DNA of 64,000 bases, taken from the IMG/VR virus record IMGVR_UViG_3300020403_000008. One strand, 5' to 3'. The DNA is from an uncultured virus (IMG/VR IMGVR_UViG_3300020403_000008) (lineage: Duplodnaviria > Heunggongvirae > Uroviricota > Caudoviricetes > Crassvirales). Shown piece by piece: positions 45,270 through 62,010 of this stretch. The notes below the pieces were generated by a model. The model was not told the DNA's origin. It was given only the letters and a program-made list of their open reading frames with translations, and did not search any database. The first letter of the stretch is position 1, and the number at the start of each line of letters is the position of its first letter. The translations under genes were made by a program, and so were the position numbers.

Positions 45270-46130
45270 ATGGCAATCACACAACAACAATATTACGCAA
45301 ATGACGCTCTATGGGGCGGAACACAATACACTAAGCTGGAAGATATAATAAATAACTTCTATGCATTCTATGTTGGTGATGGCAAAATTATAGATACTGC
45401 TAAAAGGTATGATGTTGTATTTCATGCAAAGCGAGCTCTCCAAGAGCTACATTATGATGCACTAAAAGAAATAAGAGCTGTAGAAATAGAGGTGCCCCCT
45501 CAACTACAAATGATTTTGCCAAAAGATTTCGTAAGTCTAGTAAGGCTTTCTTGGATTGACACTAAGGGGAGATTTCATCCTATTACAGAAAACAGAGATA
45601 CAGCTATTGGTGTAGCTTACCTTCAAAATGATGATGCTACATATTCATATCAGTTTGACGCTGAAGGCAACATAGAGGTAGGTAGCACTATAAGCCGTGA
45701 ACGTGCAAAAACTGTACAACCAGAAGACCAAGACTCGACATCTTTATTAGACGAAATGTATGGTGGTCGTTTTGGTATGATAACAAATAAGGCAAACATA
45801 AATGGAACTTACAACATCAGTAAACACCTTGGCACAATAGAATTTAGTACAGAGCTTACAGACAAGCTCATAATGATTGAATATGTTACTGACGGGCTCA
45901 CAGACCTTGATGATAGTGAAATACAGGTCCATAAGTTTGCAGAAAACTATGTTTTCAAACAAATTGCTTACTCTATATTATCCACTAAGTTCGGGGTTCA
46001 AGAATACATTGTCAGAAGATTTCAAAAAGAAGCGTTTGCTGCATTAAAAAACGCAAGAATAAGATTGAACGATGTCAACCCTGTTGACCTTGTAAAAGCA
46101 ATGAAAGGTCGAAACAAGTGGATTAAATAA
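45270..46130 (+). CDS. tail ring / structural protein
   Basis: FHAKRALQEL.YD, LPKDFV, EYVTDGL, MKGRNKWIK. Confidence 0.7.
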   Translation: MAITQQQYYANDALWGGTQYTKLEDIINNFYAFYVGDGKIIDTAKRYDVVFHAKRALQELHYDALKEIRAVEIEVPPQLQMILPKDFVSLVRLSWIDTKGRFHPITENRDTAIGVAYLQNDDATYSYQFDAEGNIEVGSTISRERAKTVQPEDQDSTSLLDEMYGGRFGMITNKANINGTYNISKHLGTIEFSTELTDKLIMIEYVTDGLTDLDDSEIQVHKFAENYVFKQIAYSILSTKFGVQEYIVRRFQKEAFAALKNARIRLNDVNPVDLVKAMKGRNKWIK

Positions 46131-49100
46131 TGAGATTAAGAAATACTTTTATTGGCGGCAAAATGAACAAAGACGTAGACGAGCGTCTTGTTCCAGATGG
46201 TGAGTACAGAGATGCTGAAAACATCAAAGTTGCTATGTCTAATAGTTCTGACGTAGGTGCTCTAGAAAATGTGCTGTCTAATAAACAAAAATCTTTTTTA
46301 GATACAGGTAATAATGCTGAGACCATAGGTAGCGCAGCTGTTGAATATACTAATTGTGTTTATTGGTTTGTAAAATCTGATACTTCAAGTGCTGTTTATG
46401 AATACAACATCACTACTGATTTACAAAGAATAATATTATTAGACACTAGAACGGGCTCAGACAATGTATTAAATTTTAGCAAAGAAAATAGAATAAACAA
46501 TGTTGACACTGTAGTTGATACTGACAATGGTAAAATATTTATATTCTGGACAGACGGATTAAATCCTCCTAGAAAAATAGAAATAGATAGGGCTGCTGAA
46601 TACGGAGAAAATAATTTTACAGATGAAGACATTAGTGTTATAGTAAAACCTCCTCTACATAGACCTACGTTTACATTATCAGCTACAAACACAGCTGACG
46701 AAAATTATATTAAAGATAAGTTTCTACAGTTTTCATATAGATATAAATATGTAGACAACCAATATTCAGCTATATCTCCTTTTAGCAATCCCGCTTTTGA
46801 ACCGTATCCTTTTAAATACAACTACGGATTAAATAGTAACGAGTCTTTTGTTAACAGATACAATGTTGTAAACCTAACAGTAAACTCAGGAAGTCATCTA
46901 GTAAAAGAGGTTGAGGTTTTATATAAAGAAGCTGGCAAACAAAATCTGTATGTTGTAGAATCCTACAACAAAGAGAAAAAAACATGGGATGATAATACTG
47001 AATATGTAGTTACATTTCAAAACAAAAAAATAAGCAAGATACTGCCAGAGAGTCAAATTAAAAGAATATTTGATGCTGTACCAAGAAAAGCTTTTGCACA
47101 AACATTTATTGGAAACAGATTGCTTTACGCTAACTACACGGAGAACTGGAATCTGATTGACGAGTTGGGGGGTGAAATAAAACCTGATTTTACTGCTTCT
47201 GTTCTTACAAATGAATTTGCTACCGCTCCATACACAACCATGAAGGCTGGTAGAGACTACGAAGTTGGTATAGTTTATTTAGATGAATATGGCAGAACTA
47301 CGACAGTTCTTACATCTGATGGAAACAGTGTTTTTGTACCAAACGAAAATGCATTATATCAGTCTAAACTACAAGTTGAGATAAGAAGCAAAGCTCCTGT
47401 ATGGGCAAAGTATTTTAGATTTTTTATCAAAGAAAGTAAAATGCCATACGACATAGTTATTCCTACAAGATTTTATGTTGATGGAGCTTATGTATGGATA
47501 GAGCTGACTGGTAGTGACGTTAACAAAATAGAAAAAGGAACACGCTTAGTCGTCAAGGCAGATACCTCTGGACCTGTAAAAGGATACGTAGAAACAGAAG
47601 TGTTAGACCTACAAACGCAAACTGTAAACTTTTTAGAGCCTGACCCAACAGTAGCAGAACTAGAGCAAAAAGCAGGATTATATTATAAAATAAGACCAAA
47701 AGGGTTTACTTTCAATAATAATGCAGTAGAATTATATGAGTTCGAATCAAATCACAGCACAAGGGATAGAAGGGAAAATATGATAGATAGGGGTGATAAG
47801 CTCCAATATTTTGGCGAACCAATCCCTTATTTATCAGAATCAACTTCACTTGCTGGAAACTCACTATCTAGGTCAGGAACTAATATAGCCCCAAGAGATA
47901 TTAGATATAAAATAATAATAGATGCTGTAGGGGATGGTATTACAACCTACGATGAGTTTAGAGTTGAATATACTGACAACGGGGTTGCTTATGCTCAACC
48001 AGCCGTAACAATTACAGGGAGTAGTCAAACTATAACCAACGGGCTTAGTGTAAGCTTTAGCTCTCGTTCTGGTCATACTGTAGGTGATTATTGGGTGGTT
48101 AGTGGTTACGGTAAAGAACCTTTAAACTTTGGAAATCGTGACAGGTCTCATGCTTTATTTAGAGGAGAACCTGGCAATGAAGTTATTGAGGCAGGCTCAA
48201 TAGTAGAAATAGAATATATTGAATCACAAAAAGCTGGTGACGGATATAGCAACAGTTTTACAGAATCATACACTTCAAGTAGCAGATATGCAAATTTAGA
48301 AGAATGGTATTACGGAGAAAACCTTTCTGGATTTGGTCCAGGAGTTACAGATGCACAAGTATTTTTTAGACATGTTAACTTGACTGACGACCATGGAGGT
48401 GAAGGAAAAACCGCCTTCAAAGTACAAGTACAGCAAAACGGTACCATGTGTATGATAATCCAAAGTAAACAAAGACAATGGAATGAAAGAAATGCAAATG
48501 CAAGAGTTTACACAACAGGATTATTAGAAATAAAATCATCAGACAGCCTGCCTATATTTGAAACTAAAGCAATAGAAAAAGATTCAGATATATTTTATGA
48601 AGTAGGAGACACTTATGAGTTATCAGACGATAACACTTTCCACATTGGTAAAGCTGGTGACGTCCCTCAGTCTTTTACTTCTCCTGCTACAATTACAATA
48701 GACGCCCACAATGCATGGGCTTGGGGGAATGGATATGAGTCAATAAAGATAAAAGACCTATTTAATAATCCAACATTTGTTTTTGACACAAGACCAAGCA
48801 CCTTTATAGAAAGTTATAGAGAAAATAACAGAGTAGCTTCTTTAACATATTCTGGAGTTTATGAGCAAAGCACAAATTTCAATGCCTTAAATGAATTTAA
48901 TTTATCTACGGCAAACTTTAAAGATATAGATGACGCTTTAGGCAGCATACAAAAAATAGTATCAAGAGATAATGATATTGTAGTATTCCAAGAAAACAAA
49001 ATATCTAAACTCTTGTTTAATAAAAACATCATATTTAACACTGACGGCTCAGGAAATATATCACAAACTAAAAATGTATTAGGAACTATAACTCCTTATA

Positions 49101-50038
49101 CAGGTGAGTTTGGTGTTGGATTGAACCCTGAAAGTGTTTGTAAATATGGAAACGTAATATATTTTGCAGACACAAGTAGAGGTTTTGTGTTCAGACTGTC
49201 TAACGATGGACTGACTCAAATATCACAGTATGGTATGGCAAACTTCTTTAGAAGTGAATTACCAGTGCGTGATTTAAATAAAACTTTAGGTGGATACAAT
49301 CCTAGAGACGGAGAGTATATTTTATCTTTACAAGGAGGAACAGAATCTACAGACACTTTGTTGTGGGTTGGAGATGAATATTTCTGTGAACAAACATTTG
49401 TTGATGATGTAGTAGAATGGAGAGGTACAGAAGCTGTATGTCTTGTTTCTTGTTATGGAGATTGGAAACCTTCTGACATAGTAAGCGATGGTCAAGATTG
49501 GAGAATTGACGAGTATTATTGTGAGCAAGAAGAGCAAAGACCAACACCAATACCAATTCCTACACCATCACCAGTGCCTACACCAGTACCCGTGGCTGTG
49601 CCGTCTCCATCTCCAGTGCCAGTACCTGTACCAGTGCCAGTTGTTGCTCCTAACCCAACGCCTGCACCAGCACCTACACCAGCGCCTGTAGCGGATTTAC
49701 CACCAGTACCAGCACCAACACCTACCCCGTCACCAACACCTGCCCCAGTACCAGCGCCAACACCTGCGCCTACACCTACTCCTACGCCAGCGCCTGCACC
49801 AACGCCTGTACCAACTCCAGCTCCAGCAGCGCCAACAGCGATGAGACTAAACCCATGTAACCCATTTGGTGTTTACAACAAAGTAATACCTTATGACTCT
49901 AATCTGTCAGTTGGAACCGTGGTTACAATAGAAGACGGAAACTGTTATGCAGTTAGTGCTGCTATCACTGATACAGCGAACTCTACAGTGTCACAAGTTT
50001 TCTTAAATTGTTATAATTGTACTAATGGAATATTTTAA
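46130..50038 (+). CDS. Tail stabilisation (muzzle) protein, N-terminal part, with appended W-x6-C motifs, Pro-rich stalk and Cys domain
   Basis: F.GGKMNKDVDERLVP.GEYRDA.N, WTDGLNPPRKI, GNRLLYANY, GEFGVGLNPES, GGYNP..EYILS; then (XP)n. Confidence 0.8.
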   Translation: MRLRNTFIGGKMNKDVDERLVPDGEYRDAENIKVAMSNSSDVGALENVLSNKQKSFLDTGNNAETIGSAAVEYTNCVYWFVKSDTSSAVYEYNITTDLQRIILLDTRTGSDNVLNFSKENRINNVDTVVDTDNGKIFIFWTDGLNPPRKIEIDRAAEYGENNFTDEDISVIVKPPLHRPTFTLSATNTADENYIKDKFLQFSYRYKYVDNQYSAISPFSNPAFEPYPFKYNYGLNSNESFVNRYNVVNLTVNSGSHLVKEVEVLYKEAGKQNLYVVESYNKEKKTWDDNTEYVVTFQNKKISKILPESQIKRIFDAVPRKAFAQTFIGNRLLYANYTENWNLIDELGGEIKPDFTASVLTNEFATAPYTTMKAGRDYEVGIVYLDEYGRTTTVLTSDGNSVFVPNENALYQSKLQVEIRSKAPVWAKYFRFFIKESKMPYDIVIPTRFYVDGAYVWIELTGSDVNKIEKGTRLVVKADTSGPVKGYVETEVLDLQTQTVNFLEPDPTVAELEQKAGLYYKIRPKGFTFNNNAVELYEFESNHSTRDRRENMIDRGDKLQYFGEPIPYLSESTSLAGNSLSRSGTNIAPRDIRYKIIIDAVGDGITTYDEFRVEYTDNGVAYAQPAVTITGSSQTITNGLSVSFSSRSGHTVGDYWVVSGYGKEPLNFGNRDRSHALFRGEPGNEVIEAGSIVEIEYIESQKAGDGYSNSFTESYTSSSRYANLEEWYYGENLSGFGPGVTDAQVFFRHVNLTDDHGGEGKTAFKVQVQQNGTMCMIIQSKQRQWNERNANARVYTTGLLEIKSSDSLPIFETKAIEKDSDIFYEVGDTYELSDDNTFHIGKAGDVPQSFTSPATITIDAHNAWAWGNGYESIKIKDLFNNPTFVFDTRPSTFIESYRENNRVASLTYSGVYEQSTNFNALNEFNLSTANFKDIDDALGSIQKIVSRDNDIVVFQENKISKLLFNKNIIFNTDGSGNISQTKNVLGTITPYTGEFGVGLNPESVCKYGNVIYFADTSRGFVFRLSNDGLTQISQYGMANFFRSELPVRDLNKTLGGYNPRDGEYILSLQGGTESTDTLLWVGDEYFCEQTFVDDVVEWRGTEAVCLVSCYGDWKPSDIVSDGQDWRIDEYYCEQEEQRPTPIPIPTPSPVPTPVPVAVPSPSPVPVPVPVPVVAPNPTPAPAPTPAPVADLPPVPAPTPTPSPTPAPVPAPTPAPTPTPTPAPAPTPVPTPAPAAPTAMRLNPCNPFGVYNKVIPYDSNLSVGTVVTIEDGNCYAVSAAITDTANSTVSQVFLNCYNCTNGIF

Positions 50039-51823
50039 ATGAGCAATACAGGGAAAAAAATAGTAACAAGGTTAAGACTGTTCAAGGACGGTTTAGCAAC
50101 TAGCAAGACAAAACCAAATGTCGAGGGAGATAAATATTATGTTGCTCCATTCGAAGATTTGGTAGATTGCAACCCTCTTGGACCACCAGCTCCTATACCT
50201 ACTCCTACACCTGCGCCAGTTGCTGTGCCAGCTACACCACCTGTGCCTACACCTATTCCTGTAGCGGTGCCTACGCCTTCGCCTACGCCTACGCCTAGCC
50301 CATCGCCTATTCCTGCACCTGTGCCTAATCCTTCACCAAGTCCAACGCCAGCTCCAGTAGTTGTGCCTGTACCTGTGCCTAATCCTATTCCAACCCCTGC
50401 ACCTGTACCAAGCCCTGTACCTACCCCTGCACCTGCTGTAGCACCAACCCCTGCACCAGTAATGCCTACACCTGCTCCTGTACCTGCTGCACCAACACCT
50501 GTACCAACTCCAGCTCCTTCTCCAGTAAGCTCTACTTATCATGTTTGGTCAGCAAATGCAATAAGTATTAGTCAAGGAATTTATAGTGGAGATGTTTCCA
50601 TAAGTGATGCGGAGCAAACAATATTTGGTCCTATAGGTAGCGGATATGATTCAACGTTAGCTTTATATTTAAGTGACGATAATGGAAGCTTAGATTCAGT
50701 ACAAGCTCTTATCGCTTCAGCTGATGCTGGCGGAACTATAACTGCGTACTTAAGCTTTAACGAGATTCTTCCAATACAAGTAAATCAGTCAGCTCCTTAC
50801 TTTGCTATAAACGAAGTAGGCGCAGGCACACAAGCGAACATAAGAAGCGCACAGCTTGTAATTAAAATAGGTACAGACAGCACTTTACAAGTTATAAACG
50901 GTTCTGATATATATTATGAAGTAGACCCTCTTAACCCTGTACCTTCTCCAGTTGCAGCTCCAGTAGCATCAGATGTATGTTTGACTAATCCTGCTGCTGT
51001 AACAATACAAAGCATTGGAGGTGGCAATAAATATGTATTTGGAGGCACATACGGAAATTATAAAACATCAGTTGGAACTTATGTCTTAACAGGCGTTCCT
51101 TCAAGTCATCCTATTGCAATACTTAATGACGGAAAACAAGCCTTCATAAGTTATACAGGAACTGTAATGGCAGGTTCAAAAGGCATAAATAATGTTTATC
51201 ACGACTACTATTATGGCGATATAACGATAACTGTAAACGGAGATTATGGAACAGTAAGTTATGATTGCTTGAATCATGGATACATGGGAGGACAAGATAA
51301 CTTAACATACGATAATGTTACATGTTCAGCTCCTTCTCCAGTGCCAGTTGCACCTACGCCAATCCCTGTAGGAGCACCTATAGCAGCTCCAGTAGTAGCA
51401 CCAACACCAGCACCTACTCCTGCTCCAACACCAGCTCCAGCACCTGTTCCTGCTCCAGCTAGCCAAACTTATAGTTTACCACAAGGCTCAACTATTAATG
51501 TTCAAGGCATGTTTATGAACGGAACGCTTTGGTATTATTTTGGAACTTATGGTAGCGATAGCTATACGTTTACCGCAACCTCAGGAACATATACATTCAA
51601 CGTTCCTCAATCACACCCTATTGCTTTCTATACAGCGGGAACAACAAACAGCTACAGTGGAGGTACGGTGCAAGGAACTAAGAACGGACAAGACGGAAAT
51701 AGCTATGATTATAGATATGGAACAGTAACATTAACAATAAATGATACAAGCGCAACACCAGTGACTTATGAGTGTTATTTCCATGGTTACATGGGAGGAT
51801 TAAACAATCTCATATTGGTATAA
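50039..51823 (+). CDS. Pro-rich virion appendage protein 1 (NTG head, XP stalks, two cupredoxin-like domains)
   Basis: Shared head; (P-T/A/V/S/N/I)n; HPIA...C..HGYMGG twice. Confidence 0.75.
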   Translation: MSNTGKKIVTRLRLFKDGLATSKTKPNVEGDKYYVAPFEDLVDCNPLGPPAPIPTPTPAPVAVPATPPVPTPIPVAVPTPSPTPTPSPSPIPAPVPNPSPSPTPAPVVVPVPVPNPIPTPAPVPSPVPTPAPAVAPTPAPVMPTPAPVPAAPTPVPTPAPSPVSSTYHVWSANAISISQGIYSGDVSISDAEQTIFGPIGSGYDSTLALYLSDDNGSLDSVQALIASADAGGTITAYLSFNEILPIQVNQSAPYFAINEVGAGTQANIRSAQLVIKIGTDSTLQVINGSDIYYEVDPLNPVPSPVAAPVASDVCLTNPAAVTIQSIGGGNKYVFGGTYGNYKTSVGTYVLTGVPSSHPIAILNDGKQAFISYTGTVMAGSKGINNVYHDYYYGDITITVNGDYGTVSYDCLNHGYMGGQDNLTYDNVTCSAPSPVPVAPTPIPVGAPIAAPVVAPTPAPTPAPTPAPAPVPAPASQTYSLPQGSTINVQGMFMNGTLWYYFGTYGSDSYTFTATSGTYTFNVPQSHPIAFYTAGTTNSYSGGTVQGTKNGQDGNSYDYRYGTVTLTINDTSATPVTYECYFHGYMGGLNNLILV

Positions 51824-51827
51824 CAAC

Positions 51828-51835
51828 TATCTTTG
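51828..51835 (+). promoter_or_regulatory. -7 promoter element TATCTTTG inside the cassette
   Basis: Consensus match in the 23-nt gap before 51847. Confidence 0.55.
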
Positions 51836-51846
51836 TATGATATAAT

Positions 51847-52836
51847 ATGGCAAATACAGGAAGAAAAATATTCACAACGATACGTCAATATGTAAATGGC
51901 GTTTGGAATGGTAACGAGAAGTTCAATAGCACTGACGACCCCGATTACCAATACCCTGTTTATGATGAAGCTGAGTGCCCACTACCAGCTCCTCCTGTAC
52001 CTAGCCCTATACCAACCCCTAGCCCAATACCAACACCTAGTCCAGTGCCTGTTCCAGTGCCAGCAGTAGTGGAAGTAGCCCCTAATCCAGTGCCAAATCC
52101 AGCGCCAACTCCAACTCCTGCGCCTGTGCCTGTTGTTATTCCTACACCTGCACCAGTTCCGAATCCAACACCAGCGCCACAACCAGCGCCGACACCCGCT
52201 CCTGCCCCAGTACCAGCGCCTGTTCCTGCTCCTACTTCAAACCAGTATGTGGTTCTAGGACATGGAAACACTCCAGAATCTGCATGTAACGATACTTTAA
52301 ATGATTTATTTTATATTGATGGAGGACAATTAGCTACATCAACAAATGTATATTACGATGAATGGGGTAATACAAAATCGCAACCACAATATTTTGCTCA
52401 AGCTGGAGTTGTAAGATATTGGAATGGACAACAGTTTACATCTTACGCAAGTTGTAACCAACCAACACCAGCACCGAATGCACCTACGCCAATACCAGTA
52501 GCAGCACCAACAGCTAATTGCGGAAGCAATACATATTACCTAAGCGAAGGTAAATTCTATGGTTCTTATTTCTGCCAATCACCTTTTGGAGGAATGGTTG
52601 GAGGAGGAGCGGCAACGACTTACCCAATAACTATGGCGGTTACATCGAACTATCCTGGAAGCGTAAATGCTCAACTAGGAGCTCAACTATGTTACAATGG
52701 ACAACCTTTTTCTGGAAACGGCTTCCATTATTTAATGAGTACCTTCCCTAGTAGTTTTAATGGAACAGGAAGTCATTCGATGGTAGTAATTAATGATGAC
52801 GGTATAGTTACCTCAGTTAAATATATGACTTGTTAA
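51847..52836 (+). CDS. Pro-rich virion appendage protein 2
   Basis: NTG head; XP stalks; two Cys-bounded beta domains. Confidence 0.75.
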   Translation: MANTGRKIFTTIRQYVNGVWNGNEKFNSTDDPDYQYPVYDEAECPLPAPPVPSPIPTPSPIPTPSPVPVPVPAVVEVAPNPVPNPAPTPTPAPVPVVIPTPAPVPNPTPAPQPAPTPAPAPVPAPVPAPTSNQYVVLGHGNTPESACNDTLNDLFYIDGGQLATSTNVYYDEWGNTKSQPQYFAQAGVVRYWNGQQFTSYASCNQPTPAPNAPTPIPVAAPTANCGSNTYYLSEGKFYGSYFCQSPFGGMVGGGAATTYPITMAVTSNYPGSVNAQLGAQLCYNGQPFSGNGFHYLMSTFPSSFNGTGSHSMVVINDDGIVTSVKYMTC

Positions 52837-52837
52837 T

Positions 52838-53572
52838 ATGGCAAATACAGGAAGTAAAATATATAGAACACTAAGGCTCATAAAAAATGGAGTTAGGACT
52901 GTGCACGTAAAACCAAACGTGCCAGAAGACCCTGACTTTATTCCTCCTTTTACAGACTTAGCAGATTGCTATACTAATGCTCCTGCACCTGCGCCTGTTC
53001 CTGTTCCTACTCCTGCTCCAGTACCTAACCCCGTGCCAACTCCAGGACCTGCACCTTCGCCAGTTCCTGCTCCAAGTGCAATACCTCCAACCCCAGCACC
53101 AACTCCTGCGCCAGTCGCAGATGTTGTACCAACTCCTTCACCGACACCTGCGCCAGTAGTAAAAGTTCCTTCGCCAGTTGGAGGAGGTTCTACTTTCTAC
53201 TTGAGTGCACCAAGACAAACATCTGGAGAGCTTTGTACAGCTGCATTCTCAATAGTTATGAGTGTACAAGTTACAGCTGCTACGGTTGCAACATCGTTAG
53301 GAGCACAAGTAACTAAAGGTGGAGCTAAGTTCCGTGGTAATAACAAATATTACGCAATGGACAATTCAAATAATTATACAACACACTCAGGAACAACATG
53401 GTTGGCTGTGTTAATTAATAATGATGGTATTATACAAGATATAGTTTACGTAAAATGTGGAGATTATGATGTAATGGATGGCACAGGATGGGATGCCCCA
53501 GACCCTTATAGCACGACACCACAAGATGACGGTGAGCTTGTTTATTATTATAAAGATACAATGAATTTATAG
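52838..53572 (+). CDS. Pro-rich virion appendage protein 3
   Basis: NTG head; XP stalk; domain paralogous to the C-terminus of protein 2. Confidence 0.75.
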   Translation: MANTGSKIYRTLRLIKNGVRTVHVKPNVPEDPDFIPPFTDLADCYTNAPAPAPVPVPTPAPVPNPVPTPGPAPSPVPAPSAIPPTPAPTPAPVADVVPTPSPTPAPVVKVPSPVGGGSTFYLSAPRQTSGELCTAAFSIVMSVQVTAATVATSLGAQVTKGGAKFRGNNKYYAMDNSNNYTTHSGTTWLAVLINNDGIIQDIVYVKCGDYDVMDGTGWDAPDPYSTTPQDDGELVYYYKDTMNL

Positions 53573-53574
53573 AT

Positions 53575-53757
53575 ATGAATTTTACAGGGAAAAAATATTA
53601 TACAAAATTAAGAAAGTTCGTAAATGGAAAACCAACACAAGATGTGAAGGAAAACATAATTACGGACCCAGATTATATAAAACCTTATGATGATATAAAT
53701 GGATGCCCAAAAGGCACGTCTTCGCCTGCACCAGTTGCAGCGCCAACGACATATTAA
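53575..53757 (+). CDS. Head-only appendage protein 4 (60 aa)
   Basis: Head motif plus a short SPAPVAAPT tail. Confidence 0.75.
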   Translation: MNFTGKKYYTKLRKFVNGKPTQDVKENIITDPDYIKPYDDINGCPKGTSSPAPVAAPTTY

Positions 53758-53763
53758 TTAATT

Positions 53764-55554
53764 ATGGGAGAGAAGTACAGTAAAATAAGAAAATATGTAA
53801 ATGGCTTTCCAAGAAAAGATGAAGCCGTCAATAGCCCTAACGAGCCTGGGTACATTCCACCTGTATATGATGCAGGTCCATGTACTACATGTGAGCCAGA
53901 GGAAGATGGTGACATTATTGAATGGAGAGGTCATTCTTTTTACTGTGAGCAAGAAGATGCTCCCACGCCCACTCCTAGCCCAACTCCTAGTCCTACGCCT
54001 AGTCCGACACCTAGTCCTACGCCTACGCCAACACCTACCCCTACACCGACTCCAACACCTAGTCCTAGTCCAGTCCCTGTACCAGCACCTAGTCCAATAC
54101 CTGCCCCAGCGCCAATACCAGCTCCTTCTGTAGGATATGTATATTATACTGTTAACGATTGTGCAAACACTTTTAATGATATTGTAAGAAGCACTTTTTC
54201 TCTTTCAACAGGAACTGTTGTAAAAGCCACAGGATTAAGTGGTTGTTTAGAAATAGGAAATTTAACACAGCCATCAGGCACAAACACTGTATATGAGGAA
54301 TATACTGATTGTACTGATTGTGGCGCAACAACTCCTACTCCAACACCTAGCCCAACACCTACACCAACACCAGCGCCAGCTCCAATTCCAACGCCAGCGC
54401 CTGTGCCTAACCCAACCCCTGCGCCTACACCAGCACCTACTGTTACACCTGTAGTGCCTACTCCTGTACCTCAACCAACTCCAACGCCTGCGCCTACGCC
54501 AGCTCCAACACCTGCGCCAATACCAACGCCAGCACCTACACCAATTCCTAATCCGTCTCCAACTCCTGCTCCAGCAGCAACACCTTGCTATGAGTTTACT
54601 ATTGGAAATGATGGAGACCCATTAGAAGACGATTCGTTCACATACAGATTATGTGGCGGAGGAAATTCATCAGGTTCAATACCATTTGGAGACCAAATCA
54701 CTGTTTGTGCCGAGTCTTTCTCTCACATAGGAACTTCTCTAACTGTAACAAACACATTAGTCCCTTGTTCTGGAAGCCCTGTACCTAGTCCAGTAGCACC
54801 TAATCCTGTGCCAACACCAGCACCCACACCAGCACCAGCTGCTACACTTTACTATGTTGCTTTAGGTAACGGAAACAGCGCTTCATCTGCTTGTAACGAT
54901 ACCTTAAACGACTACTTCTACATAGATAGTGGACAATTAGCTACTGCTAGCGGAATATATTATGATGCTGCGGGTCAGAACCCTGCGCAAGACACGCACT
55001 ATACGGATGGAAATGGATTCTATGTTGTTTGGAATGGTTCGTCTATCACAAACCTACAGTCTTGTCCTTCAGGACCTGCTCCAACAGCTCCTAATCCAGT
55101 ATATACACCACCTACACCTAACCCTGTATATACACCACCTTCTCCATCACCTGTAGCGCCTACACCTAATCCTGTAGCACCTACGCCTAATCCTGTAGCA
55201 CCTACACCTAATCCTGTAGCGCCAACACCTAACCCTGTAGCGCCAACACCTAATCCTGTGGCTCCCACGCCTACACCAGCGCCAGCACCAACTCCTACAC
55301 CTGCACCGCAGCCAGTAGCTCCGCAGCCTGTACCGACACCAGCACCATCTTCTACGCCTGCATACAGAGTTGAAGTTCAAAAGCAAAGTGGAGTCACTTA
55401 CATGATATTCACATATACTGATTCGTACGGAAACTCTCAGTACAAAAACAGTATGAACTCTTATGAATATGTTTGTGCTCAAAACGGTAATATTCAACCT
55501 CAGTCAGGAGTACAAGGGTACCAGAACCTATACACAAGTTGTGTTGGTTCGTAA
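53764..55554 (+). CDS. Pro-rich virion appendage protein 5
   Basis: Head, [10 protein letters not shown] motif, four XP stalks, four Cys-containing domains. Confidence 0.75.
55153..55272 (+). repeat. 21-bp tandem repeat encoding VAPTPNP (5+ copies)
   Basis: GTAGC(G/A)CC(T/A)AC(A/G)CCTAA(T/C)CCT units with synonymous variation. Confidence 0.85.
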
Positions 55555-55598: not shown

Positions 55599-56864
55599 AT
55601 GTTCTCAGAAATACCAAATTTTCTCACTCATGATGAGTGCGATTTATTTATACAATTAATAGAAAAACAAAACACCCGTTCACAAGTTGCTGGAAGCGGA
55701 AGTGATAATTCAAAAATAGAAGATAGTAGGACTTCTTACACTTCTAATTTTGGCGAAGAAATGTTACTTCCAAAAGCTCTAAAAGAAAGAATTGCAGCTC
55801 ATTTAGACTTAGATGTTGTAAGAGGTGAAACCTTGCAAGGTCAAAAATACGAAGTAGGTCAATATTTTAGACCACATCTAGATTGGTTTCAAGGTGATGC
55901 ATATAACAACCATTGTTTGCATTCTGGAAACAGAACTCACACTTTCATGTTATATCTAAATGATGATTTTGAAGGTGGAGGTACTGATTTTCCAAACTTA
56001 GGTAAAACTGTAAAGCCAGAGAAAGGAAAAGCTGTATTCTGGCGTAACATGGATGATAACGGAAACGGTATATCTGATGTTATGCATGAAGGTATGGATG
56101 TGACGAAAGGAACTAAATATATAGTTACAAGTTGGTGGAGAGAAAAAGAATTTAATGGCGCTGAGAACACAAGGCTTGCAAATGAATTTCATGAAGCACA
56201 AAGAAAAGAAAAAGAGTCTAAGGTTGTAAATATTAATTCAGGCACACAAACATTTAAAACTGTAGATGAGATACCTAGATTTACAGAAAATGGATTTATG
56301 AAGGCTAAGGTTCCTCAAGATGTGTGGGGCTTAATTCAGGACTCATACCACTTATTAAAAGATAAGGAGGTTGCAGAAAAATTTTCAGGAAAAGAAGGCA
56401 TTATAGATACAATAGTTACTGATGCCGAAAGCAGCACTATTTTAAGTTTTGAGCATATACCAAACATTAGAACTCAAATACATAAAATGTTAATGCCACT
56501 ACATGAGGAGTGGGCAAAAACAAGGCTAGAACCATCTTTTGTGTATGGTATAAGGTCTTATCAAAGAGGAGCTACGTTAGCGAAACACGTTGACAGGATA
56601 GCGACTCATCACATATCTACTATTATTATTGTAGACAAAGATTTAAAGTGTGGTTGTCAAACAAAAGAGTTTGGTGATGATTGGGCTTTAGATATACAGG
56701 GTCATGACGGAGAGTGGTATGAAGTTTTTGCAGAACCAGGAGAAATGATTTTATATGAATCTGCTGTCTGTGAACATGGTAGAAGTAAACCTTTTCAAGG
56801 AACAAGCTTCAAGAACTTTTATACACACTACAAGTTAGTTGATTACCAGTATGCGGGACAATAA
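55599..56864 (+). CDS. Prolyl 4-hydroxylase with two tandem 2OG-Fe(II) domains
   Basis: Domain 1: ETLQGQKYEVGQYFRPHLD, RTHTFMLYLND, GGGTDFP, MHEG, KGTKY..TSW. Domain 2: YGIRSY..KHVD, PGEMILYES..EHGR. Confidence 0.88.
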   Translation: MFSEIPNFLTHDECDLFIQLIEKQNTRSQVAGSGSDNSKIEDSRTSYTSNFGEEMLLPKALKERIAAHLDLDVVRGETLQGQKYEVGQYFRPHLDWFQGDAYNNHCLHSGNRTHTFMLYLNDDFEGGGTDFPNLGKTVKPEKGKAVFWRNMDDNGNGISDVMHEGMDVTKGTKYIVTSWWREKEFNGAENTRLANEFHEAQRKEKESKVVNINSGTQTFKTVDEIPRFTENGFMKAKVPQDVWGLIQDSYHLLKDKEVAEKFSGKEGIIDTIVTDAESSTILSFEHIPNIRTQIHKMLMPLHEEWAKTRLEPSFVYGIRSYQRGATLAKHVDRIATHHISTIIIVDKDLKCGCQTKEFGDDWALDIQGHDGEWYEVFAEPGEMILYESAVCEHGRSKPFQGTSFKNFYTHYKLVDYQYAGQ

Positions 56865-59421
56865 ATATATTTCTTTTGACCCGTGGTGGGGTGGTTTCTC
56901 TAACATAAGAATGACGTATGAATTAGTAGGAGCTTTATCTGTTATAACTGGTAGAACAATAATTTTACCTCACAGAATATATTGTTTGTTTTTATCAGAA
57001 TGGCAAGATAAAAAAACATGGTTTGACATGTTTGATGCTTTAGATAAAAAAAAATTCAGAAAGCATTTTGATTGTATAGAATATTATGACATTCCAGAAT
57101 ATGAAAATCTTGAAAACGATGCGCAATATTTCGAAAATGTTTCGTCTATTGCGAAAGTTATTACTTTTGGCGACAAAGACGGAAAACTAGGTCCTATGAA
57201 AGGTCCTGATAATGATTATGTCTTAACATGTGGCATAGAGGACCAAAGCGAGTTTGATGTTTTTAAAGGCGACAGACAAGTTATAGACTTAGAGTGTGAT
57301 GATAAATTTATACACTTCCCTAGAAACTTGTTTGGTCATTTTTATTACCATGTTTATGGTAAAACACCTATTATTAGAAACAGGATTAAAGAAAAAGTAA
57401 ACTTAGGTATACAATACAAACCTGATATTTTTGATAAAGCCAAACAAATAACAGACAAATTAGGAACATTTAATGCTATTCATGTTAGAAGAAATGATTT
57501 TCTGCAAGTAAGAAAAGATATTGCAGAAGCTCAAACTAATAATCTTTTAGATGACATTTCTGACAGAGTGCCTAACGACAAACCACTATTTATAGCAACA
57601 GACGAAAAAGACAAGTCTGTGTTTTTGCCATTAAAAAAAAGATACAATGTATTATACCTTACTGATTTTCCACAATCAGGAGTAAATGATACAGATGATT
57701 TGCTTTTAGACCAAGTTGTATGCTCTCAAGCAGATATATTTTTAGGCAGTCATTTATCTACTTTTTCTGACTATGTAAACATTATTAGAGGTCAGCAAAA
57801 CAAAAAAGATTTTCATAGAGAAGGCACTAATTTTAACAGACCCAAGTTATCATATAATAGGTTTCCATGGGAAGTGGAAGAATATGGATGGGATAAAACC
57901 TGGAGCTTTCACTGGGAATATGAGCAATCATACTTTAACATAGCCGTATATGGGTCTCACAACGCTTCTGTTGCATTATCTTATAAAGCTGATGTTCTTG
58001 AGGTGGTAGAGCTAGAAAGGTTTGTAAACAAAAAAAATGCAGCGTTTTATTTCCATTTTCCAGAAGAAAATCCAGATGAATTAACCCTACAGATACATAA
58101 TTATTTTGTAAAAAAATATGGTAGCTACGTGTATGATAATTGCTTATATAATAGCTGTGTAACTAACATAAATGTTTTGCCTGCTAAAAACTTTGAGTGG
58201 GTAGGTCATCACCTTGCTCATGTCAATAATGTTATATTTCAATCTCCAGCAACAAAAAGCTTGAATATATCTTTTGATGGGGGTTCTGATGAAGGACATT
58301 TTAATATATATAGGACTGAATCAGATAAGTTGCCGCAAAAAATATTTTCTACAAAACAAGATATATGCGTTCCTTATGCTGCCGTAGCGCACTACCTATC
58401 TCCAATAAAACAAGAAGAAAACTGGTGGTGGGGCAACTTAGTGTACGCAGGAAAACTTATGGGGTTATCTGCCTACGGTACAGTTAATCAGGATGATTAC
58501 GACAAAATGTATCGTTATTTTAAGATGCAACAAACAGACAACGTAAACACAGCACATGAAAACTTTCAAAGAGTATTTAATGTAACTCCTGAAAAAAGAT
58601 TTAACGAAAAAGAATCTTATGATTTAGCTGCTGCTACACAAAAAGTTTTTGAAGATATATTTAAAGAAATTGTAGAGCCTTTTGTAGAAACACATAAAGA
58701 TTATGAATTACAATTTAGTGGAGGTGGCGCTCTAAACGTAATAAACAATGCTAAGTGGGATGCTTTTGTTAGTCCTAATCCTGATGACAGGGGACTGTCT
58801 GTTGGCATGTTGTTCCATAAAATAAAACCTGGTCACGTTGTTGACACAAAGTATTTAGGTTCAGATATGTTTGGCTTATATACTCAATATAAACCTTACA
58901 GTATTGATGAAATGTGTGAGGATTTAGTAGAAGGTAAAATTATTGGTTTGTGCCAAGGACGTGGAGAGCACGGAGCAAGAGCGTTATGTAACAGAAGTAT
59001 TTTATGTTTACCTAAAGAGGGTTTCAAAGAAAAACTTAATGACCAAGTAAAACATAGAGAGGCTTTCAGACCTTTCGCACCTGTATGTCGAAAGGAGGAC
59101 GCTAACACGTGGTTTGATTTTGGAAAGTACACCGAATATATGAGTCACAACGCTATAGTTAAAAATGTAAATAAAAGTATACAATCTATAATTCACAAAG
59201 ATTATACCGCTAGGCTGCAAACAGTCACCTCGTCATCAAATCCTTTTATTTATTTACTCTTGACTAGAATGAAGGAATTAGGTCATGACCCAATACTAAT
59301 TAATACATCATTTAATGTAATGGGAAAACCTATAATAAACCAGTGGGAAGAAGCTATAAGTATGCTAAATGACACTGGATTAGATGTATTAACGGACGGT
59401 AAAAACAAAATATATGGATAG
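56851..59421 (+). CDS. Fusion: GDP-fucose O-fucosyltransferase-like (O-FucT, GT-B) + NodU/CmcH-family O-carbamoyltransferase
   Basis: GGFSNIR, GRTIILP, AIHVRRNDF, FIATDE, DQVVC..FLGS..STFS; then GSHNAS, ELERF, HHLAH, GKLMGLSAYG, GGGALN, GARALCNRSIL, KHREAFRPFAP, NTSFN. Confidence 0.88.
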   Translation: MRDNKYISFDPWWGGFSNIRMTYELVGALSVITGRTIILPHRIYCLFLSEWQDKKTWFDMFDALDKKKFRKHFDCIEYYDIPEYENLENDAQYFENVSSIAKVITFGDKDGKLGPMKGPDNDYVLTCGIEDQSEFDVFKGDRQVIDLECDDKFIHFPRNLFGHFYYHVYGKTPIIRNRIKEKVNLGIQYKPDIFDKAKQITDKLGTFNAIHVRRNDFLQVRKDIAEAQTNNLLDDISDRVPNDKPLFIATDEKDKSVFLPLKKRYNVLYLTDFPQSGVNDTDDLLLDQVVCSQADIFLGSHLSTFSDYVNIIRGQQNKKDFHREGTNFNRPKLSYNRFPWEVEEYGWDKTWSFHWEYEQSYFNIAVYGSHNASVALSYKADVLEVVELERFVNKKNAAFYFHFPEENPDELTLQIHNYFVKKYGSYVYDNCLYNSCVTNINVLPAKNFEWVGHHLAHVNNVIFQSPATKSLNISFDGGSDEGHFNIYRTESDKLPQKIFSTKQDICVPYAAVAHYLSPIKQEENWWWGNLVYAGKLMGLSAYGTVNQDDYDKMYRYFKMQQTDNVNTAHENFQRVFNVTPEKRFNEKESYDLAAATQKVFEDIFKEIVEPFVETHKDYELQFSGGGALNVINNAKWDAFVSPNPDDRGLSVGMLFHKIKPGHVVDTKYLGSDMFGLYTQYKPYSIDEMCEDLVEGKIIGLCQGRGEHGARALCNRSILCLPKEGFKEKLNDQVKHREAFRPFAPVCRKEDANTWFDFGKYTEYMSHNAIVKNVNKSIQSIIHKDYTARLQTVTSSSNPFIYLLLTRMKELGHDPILINTSFNVMGKPIINQWEEAISMLNDTGLDVLTDGKNKIYG

Positions 59422-60268
59422 AATATTTTTAAGCATAGCATCATACAGAGACCCAGACTTAATAAACACAATAAAAGACGCACACAAAAGAGCTGACAAC
59501 CCTGACAGAGTAACATTTGGAATATTGTTTCAAGGCACTAAAGAAGAGATTAACAATTTTCTTTCACAAGCTGTAGGAAAAATCAACATTAAGTTTGTAC
59601 ATCATAAAGAAACAAAAGGAACGGGGTGGGCAAGAAACATTCTTACAAGAGATATGTTGCAAGATGAAGAGTATTGGTTACAAATAGATTCACACACAAG
59701 ATTTATAAATGGATGGGACACGAAGCTTATCGACTTCTACAACAAGATAGGAGAAGATTGTTTGGTTTCAGCATATCCCCCACACTTTGGAATGAATGAG
59801 TCTTATGATGTATACACAACTAAAACAGTGAATAACAGAGCATTAGTAGAGGGATTTACTGATGTCTTTAGCTTTGAAAACACAGTAGGAAAAGTTCCTG
59901 TAGAAGAATATGAAGATTCAATAACAGCCGCTGGAGCTTTTCAATTTGCAAAAAGACATGTAGCTAAGGCGCTGACATTTGATGCGTACTTTAATCCTTG
60001 GATGGACCAAGAAATATCTTCTTGCCTAGCGTGGATGAATGGATATAATATTTATGCGCCTAGAGATGCTGTTTTGTGGCACTGCTATGAAGATAATCAT
60101 ATAGGCTCTGATGAAAAATGGAGAGGTTTAGTTGCTGACGAAGTAAAAGTAACTGGTTATGAAGACAAGCCATTTGACATTATAAAGCACTGGCACACAA
60201 AAAGGAATTGGAACCAATGGAAGGATAGGGTTCTTGTAGATATTAATGATTTAAAAAACGAACAATGA
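59414..60268 (+). CDS. GT60-like GlcNAc transferase (Skp1-hydroxyproline Gnt1-like)
   Basis: IFLSIASYRDP, GWAR, LQIDSHTRF..GWD, AYPP, AGAFQF, GYNIYAP....WH. Confidence 0.82.
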   Translation: MDRIFLSIASYRDPDLINTIKDAHKRADNPDRVTFGILFQGTKEEINNFLSQAVGKINIKFVHHKETKGTGWARNILTRDMLQDEEYWLQIDSHTRFINGWDTKLIDFYNKIGEDCLVSAYPPHFGMNESYDVYTTKTVNNRALVEGFTDVFSFENTVGKVPVEEYEDSITAAGAFQFAKRHVAKALTFDAYFNPWMDQEISSCLAWMNGYNIYAPRDAVLWHCYEDNHIGSDEKWRGLVADEVKVTGYEDKPFDIIKHWHTKRNWNQWKDRVLVDINDLKNEQ

Positions 60269-61248
60269 AGACAGCTTTAGTTTTAGGTGGTGGAGGTTTT
60301 ATAGGCTCACACCTTGTTAAAAGATTAAAAGAAGAAGGCTACTATGTTAGAGCAGTAGACTTAAAAAAACCTGAATTTTGGAAAACAGCAGCAGACGACT
60401 TTATTATAGGAGATTTGAGGTGGAGTCATATATGCTCTGCCGCATTTAGACCTTTAGAAGACAAAAGAAGGTTTGATGAAGTTTATCAGCTTGCTGCTGA
60501 TATGGGTGGCGCTGGTTATCTGTTTACTGGTGATAGTGATGCAGATATTATGCACAACTCTGCCTTAATAAACCTGAATGTGTTAAGAGAGTGTGTTCTT
60601 GAAGAGCATGCTCCTAAAAAAATATTCTATGCAAGTAGCGCCTGTGTGTATCCAGAGTACAATCAACTGGACCCAGAAAGCCCAAAATGTACAGAAGACA
60701 GTGTATATCCTGCTGAACCTGACTCTGAATATGGATGGGAAAAATTGTTTAGTGAGAGAATGTATATGGCTTTTGCAAGAAATAAAAACTTAAATGTAAG
60801 GATAGGGAGATTTCATGGAATCTTTGGACCATACGGAACATGGAATGACGGAAAAGAAAAAGCCCCTGCTGCAATATGCAGAAAGGTTGCGGAGTCAAAC
60901 GATAGCATAGATATATGGGGAGACGGAGAGCAAACAAGGTCTTTTATGTATATAGACGATGCTATTGACACAGTGCGTAAATTTATGATGAATGAAGGAT
61001 TTCAAGGACCAATGAATATAGGTTCTGAAGAAATGGTGTCTATAAATAACTATGCACGCATAGTAATGGAAGTTGCAAAAAAAGATTTGGATATTGTGCA
61101 CATAGAAGGTCCTCAAGGTGTGAGAGGAAGAAACTCAGACAACACATTAATGGAGCAAGAATTGAACTGGACTCCAGGGGGTAGTCTTAGAGATGGTGTA
61201 CAAAAAACGTACAAGTGGATTGAAGAGCAGGTGCAAAAACTGTCTTAG
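60265..61248 (+). CDS. gme: GDP-mannose 3,5-epimerase (extended SDR)
   Basis: GGGGFIG, LAADMGGAG, ASSACVYP, YGWEK, GKEKAPAAICRK, WGDGEQTRSF, GVRGRNSDN. Confidence 0.88.
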   Translation: MKTALVLGGGGFIGSHLVKRLKEEGYYVRAVDLKKPEFWKTAADDFIIGDLRWSHICSAAFRPLEDKRRFDEVYQLAADMGGAGYLFTGDSDADIMHNSALINLNVLRECVLEEHAPKKIFYASSACVYPEYNQLDPESPKCTEDSVYPAEPDSEYGWEKLFSERMYMAFARNKNLNVRIGRFHGIFGPYGTWNDGKEKAPAAICRKVAESNDSIDIWGDGEQTRSFMYIDDAIDTVRKFMMNEGFQGPMNIGSEEMVSINNYARIVMEVAKKDLDIVHIEGPQGVRGRNSDNTLMEQELNWTPGGSLRDGVQKTYKWIEEQVQKLS

Positions 61249-61269: not shown

Positions 61270-62010
61270 ATGGCAAACTACGAGAACAAGACAGTTGGGT
61301 TTAGTGAAATAAATAAAGGCTGGACGTCATTTTATTCTTACATTCCTGAAGATATGGTCTACATGAAGTCAGACTTTTATACTTTTAAGGGCGGTAATAT
61401 ATACAAACACAACATTGATGAGAGTTCTCGTAACAAATTTTACGATAAATTTTATCCTAGTAAGGTTGAAACCATCATAAACGATGACCCAGAAGCTGTC
61501 AAAAATTTTAGAACTCTCAACATGGAAGGCTCTTCTGCTTTCTGGAGAGTAGAAATAAACACAGACTTAGATAAAGGCGGAGCGACTTATGATGATTTTG
61601 AAGAAAGAGAGCGATTGTTTAAGGCTCACATAAGAACCGACAGAGACGACAATCTTAACTTGGAAAGACTTACCGTGCAAGGATTAGGTACATTAATATC
61701 TACAAACGGCACGTCAATGTATTTTAGATTTATAGATAACGCCATTGAGTATGGTGACTTCGTTTATAAAATATATGGTAACTCGTATACGTATTTAGGT
61801 AAAATTATTGCTGTATTTGAAGATTATATTATGTTAGACTCTATAGCGGACCCAGTAGAACTTGGTCAATTTTGCTTTGCAACAAAAGACCCAGTGATAG
61901 AAAGCTATGGACTAAAAGGATATTTTGGTAGCTTTACGTGTACAAGTTATGAATCAACTCCAATAGAATTGTTTGCAGTTGGTACAGAAGTAACGCAAAG
62001 CAGTAAATAA
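61270..62010 (+). CDS. Tail stabilisation (muzzle) protein, C-terminal part
   Basis: TVGFSE..KGWTSFYSY.PE.M..FYTFKGG.IYKHN, KNF.TL..EG, GLKGYF..ELFAV; recalled as the usual C-terminus of the 46130-type protein. Confidence 0.7.
   Translation: MANYENKTVGFSEINKGWTSFYSYIPEDMVYMKSDFYTFKGGNIYKHNIDESSRNKFYDKFYPSKVETIINDDPEAVKNFRTLNMEGSSAFWRVEINTDLDKGGATYDDFEERERLFKAHIRTDRDDNLNLERLTVQGLGTLISTNGTSMYFRFIDNAIEYGDFVYKIYGNSYTYLGKIIAVFEDYIMLDSIADPVELGQFCFATKDPVIESYGLKGYFGSFTCTSYESTPIELFAVGTEVTQSSK

Follow-up and report, generated by a model that had tools for sequence, protein, structure and literature searches.

What might hold the products of five consecutive open reading frames (ORFs), all of which start with the same short N-terminal head, to the virion of a crAss-like phage? 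The question is raised by a stretch of 64,000 nucleotides (hereafter the window; IMG/VR record IMGVR_UViG_3300020403_000008) from an uncultured member of the Crassvirales, a marine podophage of the crAss-related kind. The attachment of variable host-recognition parts is poorly known in crAss-like and other Bacteroidota phages. Immediately upstream of the five ORFs lies the gene of a predicted muzzle, a tail protein with three short W-x6-C elements, and a fourth such element stands behind the head of the last of the five (ORF 53764; ORFs are named by their first nucleotide in the window). Here we present evidence that this element, a predicted β-hairpin, and the head belong together as two pieces of a single module that is cut apart in the window. 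The pieces probably constitute an undescribed split docking module that serves as a display system at the tail tip, and we put the probability that the head physically docks on the hairpin, rebuilding the module between two polypeptides, at roughly two in three.

Heads and hairpins in the window

The five heads align nearly without gaps over 44–46 residues, are 35–46% identical to the first head sequence and find one another in pairwise BLAST with E values of 3e-5 to 2e-14 (Table 1). Nine columns are invariant among the five ORFs (M1, G5, K7, R13, G18, N27, P37, D40 and C44), and the residues that define the head of the module (G5, K7, N27, D31-P-D-Y34, P37, D40 and C44; column frequencies were taken over 240 unique heads) are present in all five. 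The head of ORF 53764 has an N terminus that is four residues shorter and lacks NTG. An earlier note on this DNA, written from the letters alone, had recognised both the common head and the lack of a signal peptide; our alignment agrees, and the M-x-N-T-G-x-K start is hydrophilic, with no signal-peptide-like stretch. The same note had assigned Cys44 to four of the heads: the cysteine stands, and the alignment places it in all five. A Pro/Thr-rich stalk follows directly after every head, after hairpin 3 and after the hairpin of ORF 53764. The small modules borne on the stalks are partly common to several ORFs, as in ORF 51847 amino acids (aa) 129–211 and ORF 53764 aa 359–440, which are 50% identical. 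The five ORFs matched no Pfam, PHROG or NCBIfam family beyond low-complexity noise; in particular, there was no Pfam or PHROG match to the T7-type tail-fibre N-terminal anchor or to other named fibre anchors.

The W-x6-C elements, three in the muzzle before its stalk and one after the ORF 53764 head, lie exactly where the earlier note had put them. A bare W-x6-C occurs about 100 times in a six-frame scan of the window and is thus common, so that the signal above chance lies in the extended motif and its context. Over the six frames, W-x6-C-E-Q has three occurrences and no more (49364, 49499 and 53923); relaxing the pattern slightly brings in a single further site, 49418. Hairpin 3 is identical in the orthologues of three viral loci (L003, L006 and L008; loci are numbered with L and proteins with P throughout). 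No window head has a W-x6-9-C element 2–10 residues upstream in the same chain; the heads begin at Met1, and the W-C elements sit instead in the muzzle and downstream of the ORF 53764 head. This is the split.

The one-piece module

A profile built from the five window heads alone, with the W-C element left out, was searched against 1.84 billion representative proteins and matched 368 of them at E ≤ 1e-3 (69 at E ≤ 1e-10). The best 150 of these 368 proteins contain 189 head matches, 137 at the first residues of the protein and 52 internal, with a single spurious repeat protein accounting for 12 of the latter. A broader head model, applied to proteins and loci, gave 53 internal heads, and in 37 of them a W-x5-10-C element ends 2–10 residues before the head, so the search for an upstream W-x6-C in cis that the earlier note had proposed gave a positive answer. 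The 16 exceptions include three start-codon artefacts, two heads with a W-R-G strand without Cys, four C-terminal heads with a variant upstream element (either the distance to the Cys is greater, or the Cys is there and the Trp is not), three heads whose hairpin lies far upstream in the same protein or ends the previous ORF, and a few that are unexplained. By architecture, 123 of 147 proteins consist of a head and cargo; in the arrays found within proteins the hairpin comes first and the head last, and hairpin-less heads stand at residue 1. From the cis hairpins and this order it follows that the unit is hairpin plus head, which by sequence comparison is one module of about 60 residues.

A contiguous repeat of this kind had been put forward in the earlier note as a feature of Bacteroidota proteins. 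Such a repeat exists (P0008, P0079, P0093 and P0027); its home is mainly viral and not cellular, as most occurrences are in viral and metagenomic proteins and a pattern scan of one genome per species, over 185,579 species, returned only two loci. Neither head nor hairpin has a family in Pfam, PHROGs or NCBIfam. For the module, Pfam gave no match at E ≤ 0.01, PF00090 included, among the window ORFs and 19 module-bearing proteins, sequence searches of the PDB found no relative, and the protein atlas returned unnamed clusters only (scores ≤ 0.78). A tblastn search with one head against 50,697 phage records found only Chryseobacterium phage MA9V-3 below E 1e-3, with neither the head nor the hairpin motif turning up in any other GenBank phage, and a homologue search with the ORF 51847 head found two unnamed proteins.

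Pfam DUF5977 occurs after the head or the hairpin in several proteins (L038, 7175–7957; L036, 6759–8783; P0074) and may be a common cargo module.

Fused and split homologues

That one domain is split here, as the earlier note had supposed, is borne out by comparison: by the cis form, by close homologues that are either fused or split and by the co-occurrence of the two pieces. The muzzle of L013 has hairpin and head in cis, and that of L033 (44% identity over 1,168 aa) has only a hairpin at the same place, after which it continues into another domain; the next ORF begins with a head. L010 contains two cis units; in its homologues in L029 (37% identity) and MA9V-3 (31%), the hairpins stand bare and the head genes come after them. 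A single chain in L042 comprises a hairpin, an insert of about 350 residues, a head and cargo, and the same protein is cut just before the head in L069 and L074. Finally, L036 and L040 are of the cis form, and their relative in L054 ends in a hairpin, with a head at the end of the next protein. In 28 pairs of carrier and head genes, the junction ranges from a 4-nucleotide overlap to a 19-nucleotide gap, and the two genes share a frame in only 14. Because half of the pairs are out of frame, the split is no read-through artefact, and read-through or frameshifting as its cause was ruled out.

Two further arrangements were seen. Hairpin and head can stand in one chain 140–350 residues apart with a whole domain between them (L042, 6171–8432; L043, 6588–8507), which looks like a discontinuous module. 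At L018 (6782–8150), L052 (5500–6795) and L054 (139–3324), the hairpin ends the carrier and the next protein has a C-terminal head; a free N terminus is therefore not required.

Orphan hairpins and orphan heads

Co-occurrence was assessed in 43 viral loci fetched by head similarity, together with the GenBank phage MA9V-3. A position-specific scoring matrix (PSSM) trained on 28 cis hairpins only was run over the 235,173 residues of the locus ORFs, and a score of at least 5 was called an orphan hairpin. High scores fell almost entirely in genes adjoining a head gene: an orphan hairpin was present in 25 of the 35 genes immediately upstream of N-terminal-head genes versus 2 of 379 other genes, each of which has a head one or two genes away. 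The carriers form at least eight families that are unconnected by BLAST and include crAss-type muzzles (window, L007, the L032 group, L033 and L013) as well as unrelated proteins. As they are otherwise unrelated, the hairpin is the only element common to them. Ten upstream genes lacked a scoring hairpin: those on truncated contigs (L004, L005, L009 and L034), those with an intervening gene (L007, L019 and L029), one in which Cys replaces the Trp (L023), one whose hairpin scores 3.1 (L032) and the unexplained L038.

Held-out loci gave the same picture. Two bacterial-genome loci found by the head alone, one in a Flavobacterium sp. and one in a metagenome-assembled chromosome, both have a hairpin in the upstream ORF. 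A held-out metagenome set of 29 loci contains 24 N-terminal-head genes with an upstream gene in the locus; an orphan hairpin is present in that gene in 14 cases and within two genes in 17. In two of the remaining seven cases the carrier is one and the same, with three hairpins to three head genes (L067), and in three (L048, L069 and L074) a W-x6-C is visible, of a subtype that the matrix under-scores.

Hairpins and heads are often equal in number, with one of each in six lineages, two of each in L007 and L022, and three of each in MA9V-3 and L067. An arrangement of three hairpins for one trimeric fibre was considered and is unlikely; hairpin number tracks head-gene number.

Predicted structure and cysteines

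The module was folded with AlphaFold2 within the tandem protein P0008, using a 13-row alignment. Secondary structure and confidence were read from the model, in which the predicted local distance difference test (pLDDT) is 87–97 over residues 11–190. Each W-C element is a β-hairpin (strands 56–60/65–69 and 124–128/133–137), and the first strand of the head is full directly after each of them (75–81 and 142–148). The N-terminal head, preceded by no hairpin, lacks this strand; there is a bridge at residues 8–9 only, and pLDDT is 71 over residues 1–10. The W-C element, a strand in the earlier note, is modelled as a two-stranded hairpin and not as a single strand.

Neither Foldseek against the PDB nor BFVD gave a match to the P0008 model at E ≤ 1e-3. 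In VIA wide, the best Z score was 3.6, on the low-confidence C-terminal part, with 2.7–2.8 for the module region. Because the module was folded in the tandem and not alone, no claim of a new fold is made.

Of 267 heads, all but 6 have Cys44, and alignment shifts account for four of these 6. The true losses, in L036 and L040 (one lineage), coincide with a hairpin that has no Cys either, as in no other cis unit; this single loss event suggests that the two cysteines may be in disulfide linkage or in contact. The tail of ΦcrAss001 is reported to be stabilised by disulfides (Bayfield et al. 2023, PMC10172136), and a disulfide lock is therefore plausible in a virion. The linker from Cys44 to the hairpin Trp is 4–7 residues in most head-plus-hairpin proteins and 10–13 in the ORF 53764 family; given so short a linker, the hairpin would usually serve another head.

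Proposed docking and its alternatives

We infer that the head docks on the hairpin; the geometry and stoichiometry of the joint and a disulfide across it are put forward with much less confidence. The muzzle would be hexameric and placed at the tail tip, by homology with the muzzle gp44 of ΦcrAss001, which is reported to be hexameric (PMC10172136). Each subunit would then present three hairpins, all located after aa 1069, on the putative hexamer. The first strand of a head (M-x-N-T-G-x-K-x-Y) would most likely add to the edge of a hairpin, and the docked heads would tether their Pro/Thr-stalked appendage modules at the tail tip. With both a head and a hairpin, ORF 53764 could lengthen the assembly or make it branch. 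The head-only protein of 60 aa may be a cargo-less blank plug, which would fill a hairpin and add no cargo, and a disulfide could form between the hairpin Cys and Cys44 of the head.

A wider proposal, which we advance tentatively and consider rather doubtful as a whole, is that of a portable two-piece connector present in many unrelated Bacteroidota phages, locked by a Cys–Cys bond when conditions are oxidising, with subtype-matched sockets, an exchangeable display of host-binding modules and micro-proteins as blanks. Subtype matching would pair W-x-x-D-x-Y-x-C hairpins with short K-Y-V-N-G heads, and W-R-G/P-x-x-P-Y-C hairpins with longer heads.

Several observations weigh against docking. 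Most of the head may fold alone: in the P0008 model, the hairpin-less head has a pLDDT of 93–95 over residues 11–50. The pairing of hairpin with first strand in that model would follow from secondary structure and confidence only, and in a low-confidence AlphaFold2 model of ORF 53764 aa 1–80 (mean pLDDT 56.7) the W-C element is unstructured. Hairpin 1 is the weakest of the three muzzle hairpins on the PSSM, with a score of 0.0, although its L006 orthologue scores 5.8. Hairpin and head numbers are unequal in the window (4:5), L029 (4:3), L011 (5:2) and L038 (2:3), and the 'three sockets' that the earlier note had placed on the muzzle do not fit five heads in number. In the held-out test, no hairpin was seen in L061 and L072, both short contigs. 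The Fisher test on the counts of orphan hairpins (p = 7e-30) overstates independence because many of the loci are related, and the number of carrier families is the safer figure. Lastly, the fibres of ΦcrAss001 are reported to sit on a hub collar around the barrel and not on the muzzle (PMC10172136), whereas the carrier in the window is the predicted muzzle.

The alternative that survives best, though it is improbable, is that the heads are ordinary N-terminal anchors for a different part of the tail (a ring or hub protein, for instance, or the body of the muzzle) and that the hairpins are a separate element of the carriers, making no contact with the heads and perhaps capping the chain ahead of a flexible stalk. 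It is common in phages for multiple receptor-binding proteins to have conserved N-terminal anchors, hairpin and head both directly precede Pro/Thr or Ser/Thr stalks, and most of the hairpin-less head is modelled with confidence. In ΦcrAss001, a fibre N terminus is reported to dock in a hub collar (PMC10172136). However, separate roles for the two elements do not sit well with carriers that have only the hairpin in common, with hairpins 2–10 residues ahead of the head in cis, or with close homologues that are fused in some cases and split in others at one and the same position.

A slightly poorer prospect is a split left over from gene fission, or from the shuffling of cassettes, at a conserved module, the halves being independent now or interacting transiently in assembly. 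MA9V-3 looks like a case of recent fission: its last hairpin runs in frame with the next head, a stop and one codon separating the two and the cis spacing being kept. Head-only micro-ORFs of 48–77 aa, which recur in L011, L022, L038 and the window, could be remnants. Yet both halves are conserved across diverged lineages, as between the window and L006, which are about 67% identical across the hairpin region with hairpin 3 unchanged; a 48–60-aa head-only ORF is kept in L003, L006, L008 and L009, where it directly precedes the gene with head and hairpin; and the arrangement recurs in the eight or more carrier families.

Equally unpromising is a self-contained β-sheet domain formed by the three muzzle hairpins, with the heads as a homo- or hetero-oligomeric knob: headless tight arrays (three hairpins in MA9V-3 and L029, five in L011, 3–7 residues apart) could form a β-meander and phage fibres are usually trimers, but the hairpin count varies (1, 2, 3 or 5) and in many cases is that of the head genes, not a fixed oligomer number, and single hairpins are the commonest case among carriers.

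Comparison with known systems

The proposed docking of head on hairpin has counterparts in principle outside phage tails. In chaperone–usher pili and in the type V pili of Bacteroidota, an incomplete fold is completed by strands from another polypeptide, and chaining is possible. Only this working principle of donor-strand complementation is compared, and it may yet apply to the putative hairpin–head joint. Donor-strand pilins are secreted, immunoglobulin (Ig)-like proteins with a signal peptide and chaperones or proteolytic activation, whereas the window heads have no signal peptide and the virion is assembled in the cytoplasm. Pfam scans of the window ORFs and the 19 module-bearing proteins gave no match to a pilin or Ig-like family on the heads.

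Cellulosome scaffoldins offer several sockets per scaffold and carry interchangeable cargo on Pro/Thr-rich linkers, with adaptors that have both a plug and a socket. Cohesin and dockerin, however, are two complete domains, whereas hairpin and head are pieces of one domain, and neither cohesin nor dockerin had a Pfam match in the window ORFs or the 19 module-bearing proteins.

A third likeness, to thrombospondin type-1 repeats and the G5/E repeats of Aap, which are thin, extended β-sheet modules held together by Trp and Cys, lies in the size of about 60 residues, the Trp in the first strand, the paired cysteines and the tandem rod-like arrays. The module has no sequence match to either, and the likeness is a lead only. 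Structural rows for thin β-modules (8oxr_A, Z 2.7, root mean squared deviation 4.9 over 56 residues; 8deo_B, Z 2.8) are in the range of chance, as is a BFVD row for a 'TSP1 repeat' phage protein (E 3.6e-3, probability 0.35).

Closest in setting is ΦcrAss001, the only crassvirus with a solved structure, where residues 1–26 of the trimeric fibre gp22 are reported to be held in a collar of the hub formed by THA/THB (Bayfield et al. 2023, PMC10172136). The two are alike in being crAss-type podophages in which a short N-terminal segment of the appendage is held by a dedicated tail protein, in the window by our reading. They differ in the site, a collar around the barrel in ΦcrAss001 and the predicted muzzle in the window; in other phages the carrier is an unrelated protein. 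A literature search, which did not extend to supplements and most subscription journals, found no description of the motif or the joint.

A joint that can be recognised in sequence would allow appendage genes and their carriers to be paired from metagenome sequence alone. It would also explain how distal modules are swapped without change to the tail core, and it would provide a small natural connector for the engineering of phages in laboratory strains.

The muzzle gene and the appendage cassette

The product of ORF 46130 matches Pfam PF25731 (crAss_MUZ) over aa 2–220 (E 4.3e-19; 68.6 bits, curated cut-off 27) and phrog_14478 (E 1.2e-257). Over aa 1–1069 it is 40% identical to the structural protein of Cellulophaga phage phi38:1 (gp097) and of the Calle phages. 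Because phi38:1 gp097 is a single unsplit protein of 1324 aa, and its aa 1079–1321 align to the separate ORF 61270 (E 3e-24), the muzzle gene of the window phage is, on this comparison, split at about aa 1070 relative to gp097. At the corresponding junction gp097 has no hairpins. A cassette of about 11 kb, with the five head ORFs and four sugar or hydroxylase genes, separates the halves, and the C-terminal domain of the muzzle must therefore rejoin in trans. The muzzle part upstream of the cassette ends in a stalk rich in Pro, Thr, Ala and Val and a terminal module (Table 1) that has no Pfam family match.

Table 1 Positions of heads, hairpins and neighbouring features in the window (numbered from its first nucleotide).
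Feature	Position	Strand	Basis
Muzzle N-terminal part, 1302 aa, bears three hairpins	46130..50038	+	Pfam and PHROG matches
Hairpin 1, W-x6-C-E-Q, muzzle aa 1079–1088	49364..49393	+	six-frame scan; PSSM 0.0
Hairpin 2, W-R-G-x4-C, muzzle aa 1097–1104	49418..49441	+	six-frame scan; PSSM 12.1
Hairpin 3, W-x6-C-E-Q, muzzle aa 1124–1133, directly before Pro/Thr stalk	49499..49528	+	PSSM 5.5
Muzzle stalk, Pro/Thr/Ala/Val-rich, aa 1144–1234	49559..49831	+	composition segmentation
Muzzle terminal module, 68 aa, Cys-containing	49832..50035	+	segmentation
Appendage protein 1, 594 aa: head aa 1–44, Pro-rich stalk, three modules (two paralogous)	50039..51823	+	alignment, segmentation
Appendage protein 2, 329 aa: head, stalk, two modules	51847..52836	+	alignment, segmentation
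Appendage protein 3, 244 aa: head, stalk, one module	52838..53572	+	alignment, segmentation
Head-only micro-protein, 60 aa	53575..53757	+	ORF list; conserved position
Appendage protein 5, 596 aa: head aa 1–40, hairpin aa 54–63, four modules on Pro-rich stalks	53764..55554	+	alignment, segmentation
ORF 53764 hairpin, aa 54–63	53923..53952	+	six-frame scan; PSSM 10.9
Four modification genes in the same cassette	55599..61248	+	family matches
Muzzle C-terminal part	61270..62010	+	Pfam PF25729 crAss_MUZ_C, E 5e-12, 46.5 bits (cut-off 27)

The four modification genes encode a prolyl-hydroxylase-type 2OG-Fe(II) oxygenase (PF13640), a fusion of an O-FucT-like domain with a carbamoyltransferase, an N-acetylglucosamine (GlcNAc) transferase (PF11397) and a sugar-nucleotide epimerase. 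Modification genes also stand among the head genes of L007 and L009, those of L007 being a hydroxylase, an O-FucT-like gene and an epimerase. The position of the appendage cassette, inside a split muzzle gene and beside hydroxylase and glycosyltransferase genes, suggests that the Pro/Thr stalks are modified, possibly hydroxylated and glycosylated by the products of these neighbours.

ORFs of 60–116 aa at 49328–49691, 50333–50542, 51960–52271 and 54274–55497, mostly on the minus strand, overlap the stretches that code for Pro and Thr. They are rich in Arg, Trp and Cys or in Gly and Thr, and are by-products of repetitive sequence and no genes. Across 50039–55554, the span of the appendage genes, G+C rises to 0.42–0.44, against 0.33–0.37 elsewhere in the window, and GC skew becomes negative; both follow from a stalk-coding sequence rich in CCN and ACN codons.

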